Positions 4,001 to 52,202 of a DNA stretch of 52,202 bases are shown here, in pieces. The translations under genes and the position numbers were made by a program. Position 1 is the first letter of the stretch. The number at the start of each line of letters is the position of its first letter. Source of the stretch: a phage. The stretch lies in NCBI GenBank assembly GCA_028524385.1, contig GCA_028524385.1_3661.2. One strand, written 5' to 3'. The notes under the pieces were generated by a model. That model ran no database searches. It was given only the letters and a program-made list of their open reading frames with translations, and was not told the origin of the DNA.

Positions 4001-6691
4001 CCGTATATAGTCTTCTCGTCTGTCCATGCAAATATGAACGGAGAGAAGTATCCGTTCGACGTTCCGGTAGCCAATAGATACAGACGTGTCGTGATGATCA
4101 TTAAGTGCGACCTGATAGGTAAGCAAGTTCCTGCTGAAAACGGAACATCAACACACCCGTTTGAAATTGCTCTGCACTACCAATTTGCAGATTCGCCTTT
4201 TGCAGGGGATAAGAGAATATCTGATACAGATGCACAGCGTTGTAAGAAGGTATTGTTAGGTGCTGGATGGTGGTGGTATGAGTTTGACTTGACAGACAAA
4301 CTCACAGACAACACAAAAACTCTTACAGGTATTCGTCTGGACCTTGGTGAAAACATGCACAAAAGTGTCTGCGATGGCACCTATGGTGATCCTACAGTAC
4401 ACTTGAAATATGTTTCTCTTGAGCATCCGGAGGAAACTGTTATTGGCCCCAAACTGAGACTGTTTGGCAGCTGGATTGCTAAAGACAGAGTAGGAATGGG
4501 TAAAAAGGTAAGAGGATTCCTGATGGATGCGGGGACAGAAGACATGCTGGTTAATGCAGTGTGGCCTACTCTAGAGGGAACCGACTACAACAATGCTGCA
4601 AGATCTGTCAACTGGTTTAACATCCACAGAGCCATGTGGACTACCAACTGCTATTTGTGGAGAGAGCTTAACGATAATGCCTTCGGCTTCAGCAATGGCA
4701 GAAGGATGGCTATCATTTGCTGGACAACACTGCAACGTTGCTATGACCACAACTATGAAATAGGTGGTAGAGCGTGGAAAGACACCAGGGATAGAATTGT
4801 GTACAACTTTGCAGACGACAACGGTGGTGGAGCGTATAACTTCGGCACAAGCAGACTTATCCACTTAAACGGATCCTCGGCCTACAAGAAAGAAGGTTAC
4901 TCTGGATCCATGATTGAGTGGGGTCTGGTAAAAGATGCTCGCGTATTGATGGGCCAACAACTTGCTGCTGCAATAGGTCCTAACGCAGTGCAATCTGTTA
5001 AACCAGCGTGGTTCGATATTCCATTGTGGTCATCCGGCACACCAGGGACTGCTGCAATCAATCCTACCACGGGAGATCTGGAAATCTCTTGGGAAGACTT
5101 GAAGCAGGTTGGGGGCTGGGATAAGACAGGGTATCAGGTGCAGTGGTGGAAATCTGACGGATCGTTAGCAGCTGATGAGTTTGTTAAGGACAATTTCTAC
5201 ACCATGTCTTCTGCAAAAGCACAGCAATTGTTTGGTCAGGCCACTCCGTCAACGATCACCATGTCTATGTGTTGTAAAGACAACAGGACTGGAGCTCTGG
5301 GACCAAGGGTTGCTAAAGTTTTCTCAGGTATCAAATGGAATCTACCTGTTCAAAGTGTTTCATGGAAGCAAATAGGTGATAACAGGCTGCTGGTTACTCC
5401 TGCTTGCCAGTTCAACGCAACTCTTAACGTTGTTCCGGTTGTTGCAGCAAACTCAGCCAAAGCTTCTGACTTCTCTGTGTCTAACACTGCCATGGCAGAT
5501 GTGAGAAAGATTGACACACTGAATGCAAGAATCACCTGTAAAAACACTTATGGCACCTTCCAGGTTATCAACAACTTCACAGATGCCGATTCTAAGGTGG
5601 TGAGAACCGCAAGCCAGACCTTGCGTTTAGGGACTTTGGCTTATGCAGCATTGATCACTGAGCAGTCATCTACCCTTCAGGGTGGTGGCGTAGGCAAGTC
5701 TATTACAACACCTGTTTGGAAGCCTAACGAGTGGGTTGTGTTTGATTTGACTGTTGACTTCTCCAGTGATAATAACTGGACGTGGGTAAGGGATTGCTTG
5801 TCTCAGTTAATGGGTGGTCCAAGCTCTATCAGGGATAGCCACGACTCTACCGATCCTGGCGTGTTCCAAGTGGGTAAAACTCACCCAGAGACCGGGGCTA
5901 CATTGCCTGACAGGAAGTATGCTTTGGTTTGCATCTCCCACGGCAAGGCCGATGTCACATTCTCAGGGACACATACTTATAACGGAACCTACAACTTCTC
6001 AAGAAAATACAGCCTCAAGGCTGGGAATATTGTAGATGAGGTTGGGGTGTTGTATAACCCTGGCAATGGCATAGGTATTGTTGGCGGTAAACTGCAGATG
6101 CAGGAACCCTCTATCACCCCTTCCAACGTAACAGGGATCAGAAAGACTTGGGAAAGTAGTAATACTGGCATAGCAACCGTTGATGCTAACACAGGACTGG
6201 TAACATTTAAAGCGCCCGGTAATGTCAACATAACGTTTGTAGTTACGGATGATGCAGGCCGCAAGACGTCTTCAACATCTTTCACTGTCAAACAGATGAC
6301 ACCACAGTGGAGAATGTGGATAGGCAGAGCAACAAACGGGGCATACCCAAATCCGGCAGGGACTTCAGGAATGAAGACTTTCTCTGCAAGCAGACCGATG
6401 GAGTATGGCAGCGGTCCTAAAGTAGGGCAAATGGTGTACTTCGGCGCATATATTCCTGAAATTATAGGGCTTCCGAGAAATCAGATCCAGTTGCTGTTCG
6501 GATCTGGAGTTGACGAGCTTGCTACTTTCGGGTATAGCGATAACATCGAGGCTGCAAGAAGTTCCGGATGGGTAGGGTTCAGACTGCAGTTGGCAGTAGA
6601 AGGCAGGGTCATGGGGTTTGGCTCCATAGGTGCCATGCTTCCTGGTGATCAGCAGTATGATCTTGAAGCTTATGCAACTTTCTCTCGTTAA
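1055..6691 (+). CDS. large tail fiber / receptor-binding protein (1878 aa) with C-terminal Ig-like domain
   Basis: Longest ORF; SD ggag 7 nt upstream; size and composition of phage fibers; Ig-like (BIG2-type) segment ...VTGIRKTWESSNTGIATVDANTGLVTFKAPGNVNITFVVTDDAG... near C-terminus. Confidence 0.65.
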   Translation: MLPIPLLKLGRHFLDKRGGIKELAVLSYPIDNSDGTSTAVSYVNSLAILFDDGQLNITGYNKFGECRTGDRNPINYPSETAWNVDHVWRADRAFVIRTFDNQFFYIGCTAGLIGSTAAGGNDVCVREWTPLPEQIVTGLHLDTHPERLVEVMGGINNTVWVIAAPEADGMLHLYGSGNNTYGSLHVDKNQHATPVKIGESSESPETGPWKNPRINCEVHDNSVIFGGPNGFWIAGYDFLRNNSKNTPVYPAEHVTLDQFKGIPVGETWKGFMCGPNGAIIATERMHKPDDQQLVNVFYGQDVWGDDTWRSLNITYTHEVIMARGYGTSGIFFNNGTKQYRGFSRNLCNDIGAQSANNNPRANFIHYRALATAKFVEQTEPVSWTESVYFQGIHREGFLGTFCVVNGKLWWSGIPRGSFSGSNNLFGGRLNSQGFTEIPENWYKNVPVDSWSIEDIFDVNGVSSVSNIYIGDTVKMKLKPQPEGATFIIDKIELVNAAGTVVTDANYQFSTNWNHGGANEIVVTQHNRNINRRGLYSVKITYHDKHGAGRTHTTRNLNWNIIVPAYPSDGKWHTVGRKKQFHVNDTVYFGLNGSQPAPESDTAYMVRLHRQDAGSTTYDVTQEIYDQRRSIYDNLVKTQALWEFNPNGKGGKMLQVNEQNGTSLTVHEHADPWPDPGKPHPGARTLKVVSHNAGYFGIRWEATVKYVDGTTNNIGITLGGTSEDSSLKIAYTPRGISIDNMDIVRNGYGDVNIKVTLGEHLGGERIIMYAFDHDPRTNGTYANQAWSYLINAPEPNTKEFYYGMKRDVCKKTGTHDWIAICVKDERTAWDEPVNRWFIGIPTRSDKYVTEYIVCMGGTNLNLCWNEDANKYSDYDYMRDISCNQWFNQTTGYPPRQARVNPAIFTDTQVFLTKQANEVQTFKNKYDPNKWFYNCYGAFFWGPGELPNGGSCFEAATYGSDYIMGQVKKYKMIPGPETLGNAVDPYIVFSSVHANMNGEKYPFDVPVANRYRRVVMIIKCDLIGKQVPAENGTSTHPFEIALHYQFADSPFAGDKRISDTDAQRCKKVLLGAGWWWYEFDLTDKLTDNTKTLTGIRLDLGENMHKSVCDGTYGDPTVHLKYVSLEHPEETVIGPKLRLFGSWIAKDRVGMGKKVRGFLMDAGTEDMLVNAVWPTLEGTDYNNAARSVNWFNIHRAMWTTNCYLWRELNDNAFGFSNGRRMAIICWTTLQRCYDHNYEIGGRAWKDTRDRIVYNFADDNGGGAYNFGTSRLIHLNGSSAYKKEGYSGSMIEWGLVKDARVLMGQQLAAAIGPNAVQSVKPAWFDIPLWSSGTPGTAAINPTTGDLEISWEDLKQVGGWDKTGYQVQWWKSDGSLAADEFVKDNFYTMSSAKAQQLFGQATPSTITMSMCCKDNRTGALGPRVAKVFSGIKWNLPVQSVSWKQIGDNRLLVTPACQFNATLNVVPVVAANSAKASDFSVSNTAMADVRKIDTLNARITCKNTYGTFQVINNFTDADSKVVRTASQTLRLGTLAYAALITEQSSTLQGGGVGKSITTPVWKPNEWVVFDLTVDFSSDNNWTWVRDCLSQLMGGPSSIRDSHDSTDPGVFQVGKTHPETGATLPDRKYALVCISHGKADVTFSGTHTYNGTYNFSRKYSLKAGNIVDEVGVLYNPGNGIGIVGGKLQMQEPSITPSNVTGIRKTWESSNTGIATVDANTGLVTFKAPGNVNITFVVTDDAGRKTSSTSFTVKQMTPQWRMWIGRATNGAYPNPAGTSGMKTFSASRPMEYGSGPKVGQMVYFGAYIPEIIGLPRNQIQLLFGSGVDELATFGYSDNIEAARSSGWVGFRLQLAVEGRVMGFGSIGAMLPGDQQYDLEAYATFSR

Positions 6692-30500: not shown

Positions 30501-30966
30501 CCCTTCTGGAGCAATCATTGTGAGAAGGAATGGTAAAGTGGCAGTGTGCGGTAACTGTAATAACGCCAAAGCTTACTCTTCTGTAGCAGGCAAGGAGATT
30601 TCCCGTAACGATGGTAAGCCTATCACGTATGGGGTTATGTACGGGGCACAAAAAGATAAAGTTGCAGATATGCTGGACATCTCTCCAGAGTTGGGACAAA
30701 GGGTAATCGATGCACTCTGGGATGCCAACCCTGGTCTCAAGGGGCGCAAAGAGGATCTGGAGAAATTCTGGGAAGCAACTGGTAAGAAGTTTATCTACTC
30801 TTTTGATGGTCATGCTATCTGGACCAGATCTAAACACTCTTTACTTAATGCATACCAACAGAATGGTGGTGCATCGCTGTGTGACTTAGTTGGGATACTT
30901 ATGCACCACCAAATGGTGAAGCGTGGGTGGTACGATGAAGGTGTTCGTCGTATTATTTATTACCAT
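27574..30966 (+). CDS. family A DNA polymerase (T7 gp5-like), exon 1, containing an intein
   Basis: Exo I FDFE, HCG and HGLMAWGYALG as in T7 gp5 exonuclease domain; motif A IDGSNLEQL...NGDAH; motif B-like GKPITYGVMYG after intein; track ORF continues 2 codons into the intron to stop at 30972. Confidence 0.75.
29587..30555 (+). mobile_element. intein (323 aa) with LAGLIDADG-type homing endonuclease domain
   Basis: Inserted after extein ...SNGDAH; starts CYSGDTQILTEKGWVRFEDL; two LAGLIDADG-like motifs (LLIAIHDDGH, LFIASLSNWDGW); ends VYCVTV...VAVCGN followed by +1 Cys; flanks align to T7 gp5 NGDIH|TKNQ...RDNAKTFIYGFLYG. Confidence 0.65.
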
Positions 30967-31242
30967 AAATAACATTGTGGCTTCATAGAGTAATCTATGT
31001 CGAATAACCTCTTTAACTGCGGGAAGCCTAAACCTTATGGCAAGGTAATCCGCAACGAAGCGCTCAAAAGAGCGAACGCTCAGAGGCCATTCCGAAAGGA
31101 AGTAGACCAGCAAGTGCGGTCGAAATGGGAGGATTCCTGTGGTTGCTTATCATAGGAATATGAGATGGTCCGATCCTACGTGAAAACGTATGGCTATGCA
31201 CGTAATGGTGCGGGGTAGCTTAACGACCTACCTGAACTATTG
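30967..31242 (+). ncRNA. group I self-splicing intron (ORF-less) in DNA polymerase gene
   Basis: 276 nt between exon U30966 and terminal intron G31242; P/Q/R/S core elements aactgcgggaag, aatccgcaacg, cagaggcca, gagatggtcc; IGS gugg can pair with exon end ccau. Confidence 0.65.
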
Positions 31243-31645: not shown

Positions 31646-31930
31646 ATGGTAGTAGAACCAACAAAAACATTTACATCTATGACTATCCCTGTTATTATGC
31701 AGGTGGAGTGTGTTCAGGTATCTCAAGTGTGGCCTGGCACCAAAATCCCAACAGGGCCTGATTTCTTTCAGGTTGGGAAAGTGTACAATGTCTGGAAGGC
31801 ACCAGATTGTTACCCTTTCATTAAAGATGACCGTGGAATGTTGTGGTATCTTGGAAATGATTTGACACTGCACCTTGGGAATGCTATTATTGCAGTATTC
31901 AGACTTAACAAGAAGGAGACCGATCAATGA
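31646..31930 (+). CDS. small protein, KDD-G-WY paralog family
   Basis: ATG 31646 with SD agagggga; contains ...FIKDDRGMLWYLGNDLTLHLGNAIIAVF... shared with the next two genes. Confidence 0.4.
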   Translation: MVVEPTKTFTSMTIPVIMQVECVQVSQVWPGTKIPTGPDFFQVGKVYNVWKAPDCYPFIKDDRGMLWYLGNDLTLHLGNAIIAVFRLNKKETDQ

Positions 31931-39225: not shown

Positions 39226-39554
39226 CAGAGATCATCGTTTCAACTGCAGGGTATGTATTCCTGACAATCATTGCGCTGGCTATTCTGGTGGCGGTGTATG
39301 GATTTGTTATCCTGCCTATTCTTGAGACATTTAGTTTGTGTCGGTGTTGGAGAAAAGCTTACGGACCACAACCGTGGAAAGACTGGTTCCATTTGGTGCG
39401 TATAGCGTTCTCTTATGCCTATGACCACTCTAGCAGTGCATGCGTAACCGGGTACCATGCCTACAACTGGAACTGGGAAGGGTTAGGGAGATGGACTGTT
39501 ACAAAAACTATACCCTTACGGTTGTACAAAGGAAAGAACACACTGGGAGCCTGA
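39222..39554 (+). CDS. predicted membrane protein
   Basis: 110 aa with hydrophobic N-terminal segment (YVFLTIIALAILVAVYGFVILPIL); SD aaagggga. Confidence 0.45.
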   Translation: MTEIIVSTAGYVFLTIIALAILVAVYGFVILPILETFSLCRCWRKAYGPQPWKDWFHLVRIAFSYAYDHSSSACVTGYHAYNWNWEGLGRWTVTKTIPLRLYKGKNTLGA

Positions 39555-39865
39555 TATTTTAAGTTATCAGGTTGCCAGAGATCAGGAGGATTTCTAAAAT
39601 GGATTTCCTCCTTTTGATATTTTACCTGCCATGATATTTTAAAATCCTTAGAAAATCAGAAAATGGATCGAAAACTAAAATGGATTTTTCAGAGTAGGCG
39701 CGACAAGCTGAATCACTCATCCTATCGTTTGCACCATATTCCAGACCACCATTACAGATTTCCCGCACATGCTTACATCTCGCTACTAGAACTTCCTCCA
39801 CTCACCCTTGACCTTTTATAGCAATAATCCAACCACTATCTTGAAGTTGCGGTGCAGCTTTCCAG

Positions 39866-39887
39866 GTACTCGATCTGTTTTTCGTTT
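39866..39887. repeat. 22-bp direct repeat, copy 1
   Basis: gtactcgatctgtttttcgttt repeated exactly at 39931..39952. Confidence 0.75.
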
Positions 39888-39930
39888 CAAATATTGAATT
39901 TTCTGAAAATTTTTCTCGATAAATTTCTCA

Positions 39931-39952
39931 GTACTCGATCTGTTTTTCGTTT
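39931..39952. repeat. 22-bp direct repeat, copy 2
   Basis: Exact copy of 39866..39887; surrounded by recurring aaaatggat and ttttctgRaaat words. Confidence 0.75.
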
Positions 39953-40188
39953 TCTGAATCGGATTTTCTGGAAATCGTTCCGGATCTCGACCTGAAATTT
40001 TTGGGGACGAAATCGATTTTTCGTTTTCAGAAATGGATTTTTAAAATTTGTATATGGAAATATTTTAGGAGGTATTATTTTATATAGAATTGTCACGGTA
40101 GGTAATTAGCATGCTAACTAAATTTATGAAATGCGAAAAGTTCTCATTTAGAACTTTGAATGATAATCATTCTCGTTTGCAGAATAAC

Positions 40189-40230
40189 GGGCAGGCCCGG
40201 TGATTGTCTCCCGGCCCCTGTTGCCCCGGC
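40189..40230. repeat. GC-rich structured element E1
   Basis: gggcaggcccggtgattgtctccc... ; core ccggtgRttgtctccc shared with E2 and E3. Confidence 0.5.
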
Positions 40231-40328
40231 TTGTTATTATAGTATCACGCAGGACAAAGAAGGCAAGGATTTTTTGCATAAATTTTTAAATGATAATGAT
40301 AACCGTTCTCATTTTATGCATCGCCCAT

Positions 40329-40365
40329 CCCCGGTGGTTGTCTCCCCCGTCACCGGTGCCTGCCG
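40329..40365. repeat. GC-rich structured element E2
   Basis: ccccggtggttgtctcccccgtcaccggtgcctgccg; near-identical to reverse complement of E3 (49271..49322). Confidence 0.55.
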
Positions 40366-40443
40366 TCCTTTCGATAGGTATATTGTGCCACCTGGCGGGG
40401 TCGCTGTCAACACCTTTTCGAAAAAAAAAAATTATAACCAGGT

Positions 40444-40492
40444 GCGCCCACCGCCAGGACCTGGCGGCGGGGCCAACCTGGCAGGTCCGCGC
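40444..40492. repeat. GC-rich element E4 with 17-bp palindrome
   Basis: ccgccagg-a-cctggcgg perfect palindrome; CCTGGCGG word recurs at about 40391, 40653 and 49282. Confidence 0.45.
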
Positions 40493-40707
40493 TATAAAGT
40501 GAACAGCTGAAGAAGAGGTACATAAATGAAAGGTAATATTATCCACCTGGGGAAATATAGTAATTAATGGCACGTGAGCTATCCTCCCTGGTTGAGAGGG
40601 CTAAAACTGAAGCGTTGGAACATAAAGAAGAATACGAAAAAATGATGGTTAACCTGGCAGGGGCGGCGGCTGGAGAATTCTACCCAAAAAATAATTTTAC
40701 ATAATGG

Positions 40708-40736
40708 TTGACAGCTCGGATAGTTCTTGTTATTCT
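40708..40736 (+). promoter_or_regulatory. sigma70-type promoter
   Basis: TTGACA-17 nt-TATTCT upstream of gene 40790. Confidence 0.45.
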
Positions 40737-40789
40737 TATTCTCGCAAGGTGAACAACACCACACTAATTAACAGAGAGGATAAGAAATC

Positions 40790-40987
40790 ATGAACGCATA
40801 CGGAATCAAATCACGTCGCAACGCTCGCCAGGTGGTCACCAATCAAGTGATTTGCCGGGTGGATGTAACCATCAACAACGGGCAAGGCCTTTATAAATTT
40901 CGTCGCGGTCATAGCTATACCCTGCAACAGCTTAACCGTTGCGCCCTGACAAAAGGTCAGATCAACCACTGGTTTAATAAAAAATAA
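40790..40987 (+). CDS. small basic hypothetical protein
   Basis: 65-aa ORF with SD agagagga. Confidence 0.45.
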   Translation: MNAYGIKSRRNARQVVTNQVICRVDVTINNGQGLYKFRRGHSYTLQQLNRCALTKGQINHWFNKK

Positions 40988-49227: not shown

Positions 49228-49258
49228 AAAACAGGGCTTGCAATGGTCCTGTTTTTTG
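49228..49258 (+). terminator. intrinsic terminator
   Basis: acagggc-ttgcaatg-gtcctgt followed by tttttt. Confidence 0.65.
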
Positions 49259-49270
49259 TTATACTTGTTT

Positions 49271-49322
49271 CACGGCAGGCACCTGGCGACGGGGGGGGGG
49301 AGACAACCACCGGGCCTGCCTG
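49271..49322. repeat. GC-rich structured element E3 with G10 homopolymer
   Basis: cacggcaggcacctggcgac-G10-agacaaccaccgggcctgcctg; reverse complement matches E1/E2 cores; G10 at 49291-49300. Confidence 0.55.
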
Positions 49323-49428: not shown

Positions 49429-49701
49429 ATGTCAAGCTGGATTAATCAAGAAGTCGAATCACGTTTCAATGCTATTTGGGATCTCATCGAAAAAGAAGAC
49501 GGCACATCAAGCCCTTACCTCAATAATCTGGAATTTCATTTCGTGGAAGCAATGAACGCAGAATACAACCACAAAGGCGGTGCTGATGAGTTCGCCAGGG
49601 GATACGGATTCGATAACGCCAACCAAATGATCGAGGCGGTTGTTCTCCAGGCTGAAGAAGATTATCAATTAAAAACACTTGAGTTTTGCCGCCGGAAGTA
49701 A
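49429..49701 (+). CDS. hypothetical protein
   Basis: 90-aa ORF with SD agagagga. Confidence 0.45.
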   Translation: MSSWINQEVESRFNAIWDLIEKEDGTSSPYLNNLEFHFVEAMNAEYNHKGGADEFARGYGFDNANQMIEAVVLQAEEDYQLKTLEFCRRK

Positions 49702-50584: not shown

Positions 50585-50602
50585 TTTCTTAACTAAACTA
50601 TC

Positions 50603-50630
50603 AGGGGCTTTAAAAGGCCCCTTTCTTTTT
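50603..50630 (+). terminator. intrinsic terminator
   Basis: aggggc-loop-gcccct followed by ttcttttt; last terminator before non-coding terminal region. Confidence 0.65.
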
Positions 50631-51238
50631 GTCTGTATTTCTCCTACCACAAACGGCCCCACCTGGCAAGTGGAATAATTGACTAGCCATCAATCCCACA
50701 CACTGTACAAACATACATATAAAATAGCTATTGCATAATCTTTCATTGTGTGGTAGCAGGGCCATTTTTACACGTTTTTCCTTCCAAAACTACATGTAAT
50801 TCCACTATTGCACAAAATTTAACCTTATGCACAATATCTCTTTCTTGTCAACAACTAAAAATCTTTATAAGTCATACACTTACATAACCACAAAAGCGTG
50901 TTCTACGTGAAAAATCGGGTATAACTATAGCCACTAAATTACAGAATTCACGTAGCGTCACCATTCTATAGTCTGCTAAGTATTTATTCCGACCATAGAA
51001 TAACGGAATAGTCAATACCTGCATAAAATAATTATTCGTGTAAACTGCATAACATAAATCGGCTCAGGTGTCAACATTTTTCGTAAACAGCCTGAAATTG
51101 TCACGGTAAGTTATTATAAGCATATAAATCTTTAGTCGTCTAATGTTTACTGTACATTACTATACTGACTGGAATCATTAGATGACTAAGAGAAAGATAA
51201 GAAATAATTAACAATACAATTATTTTATATGTAACAAT

Positions 51239-51415
51239 AAGGCAACTATGCAAACGAATGGCATGGCGCGACGGAGTCGCGACATAATATAAAAGCAGTA
51301 ACCATCACCCCCGTGATAGTTTGTCTGCAATCTATTATTCAGATCATAGTTGCCTTGTATTTAGTTAATCATGACATAACAAGCAAGGCAACTATAGATC
51401 TTATAATAGTTGCCC
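51239..51415. repeat. iteron cluster: AAGGCAACTAT in alternating orientation (4 copies)
   Basis: Copies at 51239-51249 (+), 51346-51356 (-), 51385-51395 (+), 51406-51415 (-); last two form ggcaactat-N12-atagttgcc inverted pair. Confidence 0.6.
51248..51267. repeat. 20-bp direct repeat, copy 1
   Basis: atgcaaacgaatggcatggc, repeated exactly at 51509..51528. Confidence 0.7.
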
Positions 51416-51508
51416 TGCTTTCATATTATGTCATAGAAACACCCGAAGGGGTGACCAAAGGTCACCTGGCATAGCCAGCGAAAGATTATTAACTTGTTAA
51501 TTATTGTC

Positions 51509-51528
51509 ATGCAAACGAATGGCATGGC
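51509..51528. repeat. 20-bp direct repeat, copy 2
   Basis: Exact copy of 51248..51267. Confidence 0.7.
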
Positions 51529-51569
51529 TTATCATATCTGTATAAATAGTTAGCTATGTAAACAGTCAG

Positions 51570-51626
51570 GCATGTCAATTATGTTCAGTGTGTCACCATT
51601 ATGTCATATTGTGTCAGTTATGTCAG
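51570..51626. repeat. helically phased TGTCA repeats
   Basis: T(A/G)TGTCA occurs 5-6 times at 9-11 bp spacing (about 51573, 51583, 51591, 51602, 51612, 51621). Confidence 0.55.
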
Positions 51627-52202
51627 ACAAGTTTTTCTCCTCTTTGTCAAGTGCTGCATGAAAAATTTACAATCTGGTATGGTAGCATTTTTGCGGCCCC
51701 GTTTACATTCAGTGATGTATGTATAAGCCTTGTTGTGTGGGCGTTTAGACGTCTAGACGGTTGGAAGTCCACAGGTCAATATCTAATCTATCGGCTGCTA
51801 ACTATATCCCACACAAATAGTAAGAAATATAATTGTTATGCGTGTAAACAGTAACTCATGTTATCAATCCCTGTATGTGTCGCCAGTGGTGCGCATAATG
51901 GGTATTATGTTAAATTGCCCGTAATGATAATGGTTCTCACAATGATATGTATTCTCATTCCCCCACACAAAATAGATTGCAAATGTTGTGCCACTATGTG
52001 AACGGCCTCACCTATTAATTTGCCTCACTGCCTCGATATTTGAGAATTGTTATAAGAATGAGAAGTATTCCCATTTCGTCCGCCTGGCAGCACTCCAGTC
52101 GCTACGGCTCATAACAGGGCAGAACCAGTCCTATTCAGATATTTCTGGCTGGCTATTCAGGTCTGTGTGGGAAAAGCCAACCCCTCCGGCGGCGGGGAGG
52201 GG

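Follow-up and report, generated by a model that had tools for sequence, protein, structure and literature searches.

The T4 origins oriF (uvsY) and oriG (34) each combine a promoter with a downstream unwinding element that carries a priming R-loop, and the primary origin of T7 consists of the tandem promoters phi1.1A and phi1.1B together with an AT-rich region. Here we describe a locus with a comparable order of parts in a Vequintavirus (rV5-like) coliphage. It lies at positions 39555-40789 of a 52,202-nt stretch of phage DNA (assembly GCA_028524385.1, contig GCA_028524385.1_3661.2), which is called the window in the following; the locus itself is called the hub. It separates two gene blocks on the plus strand, and all neighbouring genes are encoded on this strand. 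A previous examination of the letters alone (the sequence-only reading) had proposed a replication origin or a regulatory switch region at this place. The class of element was well chosen, as the hub is non-coding, has a conserved architecture and contains a core that does not tolerate insertions in the relative Bas54. Most of the cues brought forward for it were, in contrast, uninformative, and nothing had been said of operators resembling Fur boxes, of an unwinding element or of terminators. We propose that the hub exerts control in cis without coding for protein, and that its core (about 39850-40440) may act as a transcription-activated replication origin with Fur-type operators. We assign this reading a probability of roughly 0.45. 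Phage origins and regulatory hubs are known as a kind; the build found here is not described in the searchable literature.

To judge the coding status of the hub we aligned the window and 12 further Vequintavirus sequences with MAFFT and determined the share of substitutions that fall on third codon positions. In every open reading frame (ORF) of the hub, on either strand, this share was 29-35%. Five of the six flanking genes tested gave 57-84%, and the sixth, a short gene (40790-40987) with only 31 substitutions, gave 45%. GenBank annotators placed between 0 and 7 ORFs in the hub, at inconsistent coordinates and on inconsistent strands. Because its ORFs lack a third-position bias and its annotations are inconsistent, we conclude that 39555-40510 is non-coding. 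The annotated ORFs in this part have no Shine-Dalgarno sequence, and their stop codons shift between close relatives. Neither transfer RNA nor transfer-messenger RNA genes were found. The statement of the sequence-only reading that no ORF has a convincing start is thus correct up to 40510 but fails at the 3' end, where an ATG at 40527 follows a good Shine-Dalgarno sequence (AAGAGG-N7-ATG). The 59-aa ORF that starts at the equivalent ATG is intact in PMBT16, MaxBurger and others; it is frameshifted in the window (Table 1), also broken in rV5 and phita32, and largely deleted in phiWec196. This small ORF is dispensable, and it is the only hub segment with a protein-family match (phrog_21957). A conserved protein-coding gene in related phages, which had been named as an observation that would speak against an origin, is found solely here.

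Further insight comes from a preprint on HIDEN-SEQ, in which phage Bas54 (MaxBurger, MZ501093) was saturated with mariner insertions (bioRxiv 10.1101/2025.11.20.689424). The hub of Bas54 is 92.7% identical to that of the window. We mapped the Bas54 ORFs to window coordinates and checked the mapping by the exact agreement of the TA-site counts. Insertions were absent from bas54_0101 and scarce in the ORFs on both of its sides (Table 1). The upstream genes bas54_0089-0099 were 0.73-1.0 saturated, ten of the eleven being classified as non-essential and bas54_0095 as 'Reduced fitness', and the six downstream genes bas54_0104-0109 were 0.91-1.0 saturated. As the ORFs of the hub are non-coding and polar effects on dispensable neighbours are not lethal, the requirement lies in the DNA or in its transcript. 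In the preprint bas54_0101 and bas54_0102 are annotated as hypothetical proteins, and the tally of unannotated essential genes in Bas54 may include cis-acting DNA. Taking these annotations literally, the hub would encode small essential proteins (bas54_0101 and bas54_0102; gp193 and gp194 in rV5). Such ORFs are indeed annotated in many records and bas54_0101 was classified as 'Essential', but their third-position share is random, they differ in strand and ends, they lack Shine-Dalgarno sequences, their stops differ in close relatives, and the sole family match belongs to the dispensable 3' ORF. We therefore consider this explanation very improbable.

The hub is widespread among relatives of the phage. 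In a megablast search 88 phage records spanned at least 80% of 39555-40789, and a more sensitive blastn search matched 113 phage records at 83-92% identity to the hub. Within Vequintavirus the conservation is blocky: The segments 39636-39685, 39911-40060 and 40111-40410 have identities of 0.89-1.00 without indels, which equals or exceeds the flanking genes, with 0.92-1.00 for 39911-40060 among 13 phages. The segments 39686-39860 and 40411-40610 are variable, and natural indels and deletions avoid 39860-40410. Outside the genus, DNA matches were obtained only for about 40119-40237, namely in Certrevirus, Seunavirus, Mydovirus and Phapecoctavirus, the latter belonging to a different subfamily. 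Invariably these matches fall into a gap of about 1 kb that carries no annotation, and its syntenic position is the same throughout. The elements in these gaps follow a shared order, with GATATTT words after the upstream gene (at the equivalent place in all other genera), then three repeats (in four genera), then palindromes, and the GC-rich element last. The architecture of the hub is conserved across Vequintavirinae and Stephanstirmvirinae.

Transcription within the hub is predicted from its sequence to run against the flow of all neighbouring genes. Two sigma70-type promoters, P(c1) and P(c2), would fire leftward, each of them directly into a GC-rich element (rcA1 and rcA2, Table 1). The GC-rich elements mentioned in the sequence-only reading do exist, with the core CCGGTGRTTGTCTCC at 40197 and 40331 on the plus strand and at 49299-49313 on the minus strand (0.09 expected), but their strand had been misread, since the promoters precede them on the opposite strand. 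Among 20 distinct rcA copies from six genera 15 have a sigma70-like match (at least 9/12) within 45 nt upstream; the same test gave 1/20 on the other strand and 3.2% for random 47-nt windows. In the other genera the position of the promoter is kept and its sequence differs, with variants such as TTGCAA-17-TATATT, TTGACT-17-CATAAT, TTGACC-17-GATAAT, TTGATC-16-TATTAT and TTGACA-16-TATTAT. Opposite-strand promoters at a fixed distance suggest that P(c1) and P(c2) drive leftward transcription, with rcA1 and rcA2 as the leaders of the resulting RNAs. P(c2) fits the early-promoter consensus AAAA(N3)TGTTGAC(N17)TATAAT of Certrevirus (PMC7344957). The T11 tract upstream of it is the opposite strand of an A11 tract that had been listed as an origin cue. 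The whole module of promoter, leader and Fur-like box is tandemly duplicated at a distance of 134-136 bp, and in each copy the box lies about 55-75 nt past the predicted start of the leader transcript.

Folding of the GC-rich elements was modest, with single-sequence z-scores between -0.5 and -2.3. For rcA1 we obtained z = -2.3 on the minus strand and z = -0.5 on the plus strand, and on the plus strand the elements generally folded no better than shuffles (z about -0.5 to -0.8). In the closing helix of rcA one compensatory change was found by eye, and also mismatches. A search of Rfam gave no match in the hub or in nine relatives (E-values up to 5-10). Several other readings of these elements were tried and rejected. 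A structured or small RNA on the plus strand, transcribed from a Fur-controlled TTGAAT-N18-CAGAAT promoter, was rejected as the main reading in view of folds that resemble shuffles, an unconserved -11 position and promoters that are consistent on the opposite strand. A G-quadruplex or a Tus-ter-like site in the GC-rich core is not conserved across genera, as judged by inspection only. A conserved micro-ORF through rcA on the minus strand (pattern similar to RQSPG(L/V)P(A/V)IL) keeps neither start nor frame between genera.

Downstream of the leftward promoters lies the least stable DNA of the window. Calculated from nearest-neighbour energies, the duplex at 40031-40090 has a free energy (dG) of -62.0 kcal/mol per 60 bp, which is rank 1 of 52,142 positions. 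With 100-bp windows the segment at 40031 ranks second, behind a segment in another non-coding region that is described below. The homologous hub segment is the second least stable in 38 kb of rV5 and the fourth in 50 kb of the Cronobacter phage CR8. The five least stable segments of CR8 are confined to three places, namely the hub, the distal copy of the module and the second non-coding region. The unwinding-like segment begins about 70 nt past the operator FB1 in leftward direction and abuts the three iteron-like repeats and the terminator-like hairpin T2. In leftward order the parts are thus tandem early promoters, GC-rich leader, operator, unwinding element and repeats, with both promoters pointing towards the unwinding-like segment. 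By analogy this order fits transcription-activated origins. The replisome of the phage is T7-like, with a DNA polymerase and a primase/helicase. We rank a transcription-activated origin first because the order of the parts fits such origins and because the phage possesses a T7-type polymerase and a primase-helicase.

In such an origin, transcription from P(c2) and P(c1) would run leftward into the segment 40031-40110. The transcript would open the unwinding element, with the GC-rich leader anchoring the RNA-DNA hybrid. Both the T7-type DNA polymerase and the primase-helicase would in this way be supplied with a primer and a site for loading, as happens at the T7 primary origin and at T4 oriF/oriG. 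The iteron-like repeats might bind a phage protein, and host Fur bound to the palindromes might gate or roadblock the priming transcript. The promoter, leader and Fur-box findings would, however, apply equally to a region that produces an essential early leftward non-coding RNA or acts as a transcription switch. Fur would then tune its level, the repeats would be operators for a phage regulator, and replication would start elsewhere, perhaps in the second non-coding region described below. The RNA could be an antisense or insulator against upstream read-through, or an early-to-middle regulator. The distal module at 49.3 kb lies in the 5' leader of early genes, such that the module can serve ordinary expression. 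T1 and T2 face the leftward promoters, which would give convergent transcription, the hub sits exactly at the border of the sigma70-promoter-rich early cluster, and an essential RNA would fit the insertion intolerance just as well. On the other hand, the terminator scan found no leftward terminator or defined 3' end, conserved RNA secondary structure and Rfam matches are lacking, and with dispensable neighbouring genes the lethality of losing a regulator is hard to explain. The most meltable DNA and the conserved repeats immediately downstream would also be left unexplained. We regard such an RNA or switch, in either form, as the strongest rival of the origin, possible but on balance doubtful.

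Several observations weigh against an origin and are collected here. The leftward promoters are predictions from sequence, and RNAalifold found no consensus structure or pairs across 19 rcA copies. The hub contains neither the DnaA-box cluster nor the integration host factor (IHF) sites that mark iteron-type origins. No recognisable initiator gene is found nearby, as the neighbouring proteins have no Pfam domain and belong solely to PHROGs of unknown function. At the hub the GC skew changes its slope only and has no inflection, and the authors of the rV5 genome paper, which located no origin, state that the skew tracks transcription only (PMC3606486). The boundaries of the essential part in Bas54 are resolved to the level of ORFs, and a lethal insertion could equally mean that an essential RNA was lost. 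Finally, a second insertion-free region is an equally plausible origin candidate.

This second non-coding region occupies 50600-52202 of the window and continues past its end (4014-6619 in the rV5 locus L144), between convergent gene blocks. It contains Fur-like boxes at 51923, 51941 and 52057, many short direct and inverted repeats, and the second least stable DNA of the window (about 51141-51240). Its counterpart in Bas54 is the intergenic region bas54_0134/0135, about 2 kb long (about 2.5 kb by gene coordinates); on the rV5 map it appears as the box labelled 'non-coding'. The HIDEN-SEQ authors discuss only this intergenic region, for which they report zero insertions (bioRxiv 10.1101/2025.11.20.689424). 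Like the hub it is non-coding, rich in repeats, very unstable, equipped with Fur-like boxes and intolerant of transposons. Unlike the hub it lies between convergent blocks, 10 kb downstream, has no rcA in the part inside the window, and has been noted in the literature. It is a competing candidate for an origin or a packaging (pac) site.

The two operators of the hub, FB1 and FB2, are palindromes that resemble Fur boxes. Of the 14 positions in the 7-1-7 Fur consensus TGATAATnATTATCA, 11-13 agree with the phage palindromes (consensus AATGAkAATCATTCTCATT), and 12-13 agree with the proximal boxes of other genera. FB1 is 100% conserved in 13 Vequintavirus phages and forms the core of the sole block that is conserved at the DNA level in other genera and in another subfamily. 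No site in the window other than FB2 comes within three mismatches of the 19-mer GATAATGATAATCATTATC (0.02 expected). Allowing up to four mismatches from the phage consensus gave 7 hits in the window at 5 distinct sites, compared to 0.33 in Markov simulations, and none of them falls outside the hub and the second non-coding region (51.9-52.1 kb). In CR8 the boxes are distributed as in the window, and Fur-like boxes occupy three non-coding loci per genome. The gaps of other genera carry 1-6 palindromes each, often at a spacing of 29 bp in CR8, ESCO13 and KB57.

To compare these palindromes with bacterial operators we built a matrix from the promoter-proximal palindromes of 11 phages, which were picked by their position relative to the GC-rich block and not by their resemblance to Fur boxes. 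With it we scanned 50 kb of E. coli K-12 (100 kb counting both strands) including the enterobactin cluster. The top 8 matches were all located in the intergenic regions fepA-fes, fepD-entS and fepB-entC, all of them classic promoters under Fur control. We infer from these sequence matches that host Fur may bind the phage palindromes. The near-perfect palindrome AATGA[GT]AATCATT[CT]TC[AG]T[CT][GT] also had at least 120 exact hits in IMG/VR (L012-L131), where about 1-3 were expected from a rough estimate of the collection size. Among the matches listed, nearly all come from contigs without relation to rV5-like phages, and in several contigs 2-3 copies stand in tandem. Operators of the Fur type may be common in phage genomes. 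The occurrence of the palindrome in many unrelated viral contigs favours a widespread host factor over a lineage-specific phage repressor. The one annotated 'transcriptional regulator' that was checked as a possible phage-encoded Fur homologue (rV5 gp153) has no Pfam domain, and in the searchable literature we found no description of virulent rV5-like phages that mentions Fur boxes.

In its most specific form the proposed origin would be licensed by Fur-Fe2+ in rV5-like and phAPEC8-like phages, such that an essential transcription-primed initiation, and with it replication, is coupled to host iron, with amplified arrays titrating Fur; we hold this extension to be rather unlikely. The palindromes could also be mainly a decoy that titrates host Fur and thereby derepresses iron uptake for the iron-dependent ribonucleotide reductases, the rest of the hub being ordinary promoter DNA. 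The high quality of the boxes, the 29-bp arrays of other genera and the three loci per genome agree with such a decoy, as does the presence of class I and class III reductase genes in the phage. Interrupting a decoy at a single TA site should not kill the phage, however, and the segment without any insertion (40042-40103) lies outside the boxes, such that we give a decoy hardly any credence.

An essential DNA site that acts apart from replication initiation, be it a site for packaging initiation (pac), for recombination or for anchoring or a strong gyrase site, would also require an intact core in cis, as observed in Bas54. The repeats of the hub contain GATC, which recalls the pac site of P1 with its GATC-carrying hexamer repeats. 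GATC is at background density in the hub, however, and known pac sites lie in or adjoining terS, while the terminase genes of Bas54 are about 78 kb away. The promoters and Fur-like boxes would moreover remain unexplained. Although relatives are reported to be circularly permuted, which implies headful packaging (PMC3475682), we consider such a site improbable. For the same circular permutation, and with record starts being arbitrary, the hub was rejected as a physical genome end or terminal repeat. The lack of GATC enrichment also led us to discard a GATC/SeqA hallmark for the hub.

The repeats and words listed in the sequence-only reading do exist and are not random. The perfect 22-bp direct repeat is present at 39866-39887 and 39931-39952, and it belongs to a three-copy family with spacings of 65 and 74 bp. 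Three repeat units were also found in Certrevirus, Seunavirus and Mydovirus, with a period of 63-78 bp and the core (G)GTNCTCGATC(G)...CGTATT. A CTCGATC core is common to the iteron-like repeats of the four genera, which keep their number and position. The words ttttctgRaaat that had been mentioned occur at 39899, 39964 and 40023 and belong to the repeat units. For aaaatggat(ttt), of which at least four copies had been listed, we found three exact copies of AAAATGGAT (39596, 39660 and 39677) within 39596-39685, that is, three of the four occurrences in a window for which 0.8 are expected; a further near-copy, AAATGGAT, is located at 40030. The word TGATATTT behaves similarly, with three of its four occurrences in the window at 39552, 39615 and 39632 and all of these within 39552-39639. 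Both words cluster around the terminator-like hairpin T1.

T1 folds with z = -2.2 (3/200 shuffles equally stable) and T2 with z = -4.4 (0/200 shuffles equally stable). G-U pairs make the T2 hairpin specific for the plus strand, and it is nearly invariant across 13 relatives. Both hairpins are predicted to close the upstream block of replication and nucleotide-metabolism genes. The remaining cues of the sequence-only reading carry no weight for an origin. The A11 tract exists (40421-40431), but its length varies between relatives. The DnaA-box-like site, placed at about 40541 and found as TTATCCACC at 40539, deviates from the consensus at one position, a quality that 21 sites of the window reach, and lacks conservation, most relatives having TGATCCCCC instead. 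No IHF consensus was found in the hub, and general AT-richness is equally uninformative. The inverted repeat at 40443-40493 folds with z between -1.5 and -1.8 and has an identity of 0.70-0.84 with indels. The coordinates of all features are collected in Table 1.

Table 1. Features of the hub and of its distal copy, followed by the Bas54 reading frames mapped to the window.
Feature	Position	Strand	Remarks
T1, intrinsic-terminator-like hairpin	39583..39624	+	AGGAGGA...TCCTCCT then TTTTGATATTTT; predicted to close the upstream gene block
Spacer	39686..39855		poorly conserved, without recognisable element or coding signal; identity 0.72-0.86, lowest of the hub
Three iteron-like long direct repeats	39856..40041		cores GTACTCGATCTGTTTTTCGTTT at 39866 and 39931; degenerate third at about 39981-40041
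T2, 16-bp hairpin within third repeat unit	39997..40045	+	followed by GGATTTTTAAAA; terminator-like (terminator scan)
DNA-unwinding-element-like segment	40031..40110		least stable duplex of the window (nearest-neighbour energies)
FB1, Fur-box-like operator	40130..40177 (box 40159-40177)		AATGATAATCATTCTCGTT; 12/14 against 7-1-7 consensus; weak extra copy 40130-40148
rcA1, GC-rich leader	40188..40236	-	minus sense ...CCGGGGCAACAGGGGCCGGGAGACAATCACCGGGCCTGCCCG; directly downstream of P(c1)
P(c1), predicted leftward sigma70-type promoter	40239..40266	-	TTGCCT-N16-TACTAT; alternative -10 TATAAT at 40236-40241
FB2, Fur-box-like operator	40289..40313		two overlapping registers GATAATGATAACCGTTCTC; AATGATAACCGTTCTCATT; 11/14 against 7-1-7 consensus
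rcA2, second copy of GC-rich leader	40320..40372	-	part of the tandem duplication of the whole module
P(c2), predicted strong leftward sigma70 promoter	40382..40431 (promoter 40410-40382)	-	TTGACA-N17-CACAAT with TG; T11 tract and AAAAGGTG as UP-like region
Third GC-rich inverted repeat	40443..40493		CCCACCGCCAGG / CCTGGCGGCGGG; variable; 48-nt insertion in many relatives
Frameshifted small-ORF remnant	40527..40704	+	13 aa (40527-40568) and 45 aa (40567-40704); phrog_21957, E=4.7e-36
Predicted rightward early promoter	40708..40736	+	TTGACA-N17-TATTCT (TG); would drive the gene at 40790, where the early-gene cluster begins; annotated P195B in rV5
Distal third module, inverted	49238..49320	+	promoter TTGCAA-N16-TATACT (49238-49265), rcA3 (49272-49320); co-directional with early genes
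bas54_0100	39849-39995		1/3 TA sites hit, very low read count; not classified
bas54_0101	40001-40105		0/11 TA sites hit; 'Essential'
bas54_0102	40160-40437		5/15 TA sites hit, low reads; 'Strong fitness defect'
bas54_0103 (small ORF)	40526-40704		12/14 TA sites hit; 'Intermediate'
bas54_0130	covers 49238-49320		4/8 TA sites hit; 'Intermediate'

In rV5 the block upstream of the hub contains rIIB, a helicase, methyltransferases, the primase/helicase, the T7-like DNA polymerase, endonuclease VII and small genes, and the downstream block consists of about 30 small genes in series with many sigma70 promoters. For Certrevirus a cluster of this kind has been named a likely early region (PMC7344957). 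The distal module of the window is flanked by a terminator for the plus strand and by the promoter that belongs to the gene at 49429. CR8 possesses an inverted distal copy as well, 10.6 kb downstream of its hub (about 31760-31880 in locus L145), with an adjacent Fur-like box. Given these inverted distal copies in the window and in CR8, the early cluster is partly bracketed by inverted copies of the module.

The gaps of the other genera contain further elements. Beside the module, Certrevirus, Seunavirus, Mydovirus and Phapecoctavirus possess another GC-rich block, about 100 nt long and highly conserved (CTACCGGCGATCCACCTTCCGACC...GTTAGCCCCGCCTTTTCGCCGTGGGGTGGCG; loci L004-L011, such as L004 2675-2790 and L005 2695-2790). 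It is accompanied by a conserved CAAGCGTCTTTACAnnTCTTTACAAA motif and has no Rfam match. In Vequintavirus both the block and the motif are absent, and the module is duplicated instead. The right edge of the hub is occupied in the other genera by a small gene that points leftward (phrog_19316, a family of unknown function; L005 2819-3085, L008 1791-2213, L007 1809-1994 and L009 1817-2008, all on the minus strand), which contains a helix-turn-helix-like stretch GGTVHQVAsxTGL, as judged by eye, and is absent from the window. The pseudo-ToxI locus of phiTE was considered and rejected as a counterpart: The hub corresponds to the gap phiTE_078/phiTE_079, which is a different locus, and the repeats are unrelated to the 36-nt ToxI-like ones.

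Some observations concern mobile elements and database records. At 30957-31192 the window contains a group I intron (Rfam RF00028, 64.7 bits, E=3.3e-14), located in the block that holds the T7-like DNA polymerase in rV5, where the polymerase is annotated as two separate coding sequences. In phage YP-6 a gene for an HNH homing endonuclease (phrog_953, E=4.5e-65; locus L142, 761-1405) is inserted immediately upstream of an intact hub. The hub is about 92% identical to 16-17 GenBank records of the series MG0656xx named 'Campylobacter phage' (host Campylobacter jejuni), which suggests mislabelled or contaminating coliphages. The PLSDB record CP057073.1 (137,565 bp, E. coli from cattle faeces), listed as 'non-mobilizable plasmid', covers 99% of the hub core used as query, at 93.4% identity. 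With its rV5-like length it is probably a phage genome that was co-assembled with its host, from a carrier state or a contamination. Among 5,426 complete E. coli genomes the hub element had 0 matches, and a host or prophage origin was rejected on this ground.

The main interest of the hub lies in a testable link to Fur and in the recasting of an 'essential hypothetical gene' as a cis-acting element. Two hypothetical genes of Bas54 would be reassigned to a single element composed of promoters, leader, operators, unwinding element and repeats. Fur-type operators were found in every genus examined, in two subfamilies, among phages of Escherichia, Salmonella, Klebsiella, Cronobacter, Enterobacter and Pectobacterium. 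Should Fur bind these operators, we would be dealing with strictly lytic phages that tie an essential function to the iron sensing of the host, which is rarely seen, and this would be of relevance for phage performance at iron-limited infection sites. The rV5-like phages are among the coliphages of broad host range that are isolated most often, and they are candidates for therapy. Given the palindrome matches in IMG/VR, iron sensing by lytic phages could then be widespread.

Several traits set the build of the hub apart from described systems: its host-type promoters are directed against the gene flow, its GC-rich leader is conserved, its Fur-type operators come in arrays, its three long repeats are conserved as well, and it appears to be essential. 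The phage palindromes share the 7-1-7 consensus with the Fur operators of the E. coli ent/fep genes, whose regions are recovered by the phage matrix. The ent/fep operators lie over the -35 and -10 elements, whereas the phage boxes lie downstream of the predicted transcription start, form 29-bp arrays in other genera and are carried by a virulent phage. With iteron-type origins (lambda ori, P1 oriR, theta plasmids) the hub has in common that direct repeats stand beside an AT-rich unwinding region. Its repeats are, however, only three in number and 63-78 bp apart rather than about 20 bp, and no initiator gene overlaps or adjoins them, nor is there a cluster of DnaA boxes. The T7 primary origin resembles the hub in its tandem promoters upstream of an AT-rich segment and in the replisome that it serves. 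It lacks Fur-like boxes and long repeats, and T7 uses its own RNA polymerase, whereas rV5-like phages encode none (PMC7344957). The T4 origins depend on MotA-dependent middle promoters and no single one of them is essential, in contrast to the host-type early promoters and the apparent essentiality of the hub, in which a GC-rich leader and Fur-like operators are interposed and iteron-like repeats flank the unwinding element. At oriF and oriG a promoter leads directly into an unwinding element of about 50-100 bp, and the promoters of the hub likewise point at the least stable segment of the window, such that priming from an R-loop is conceivable for the hub as well.

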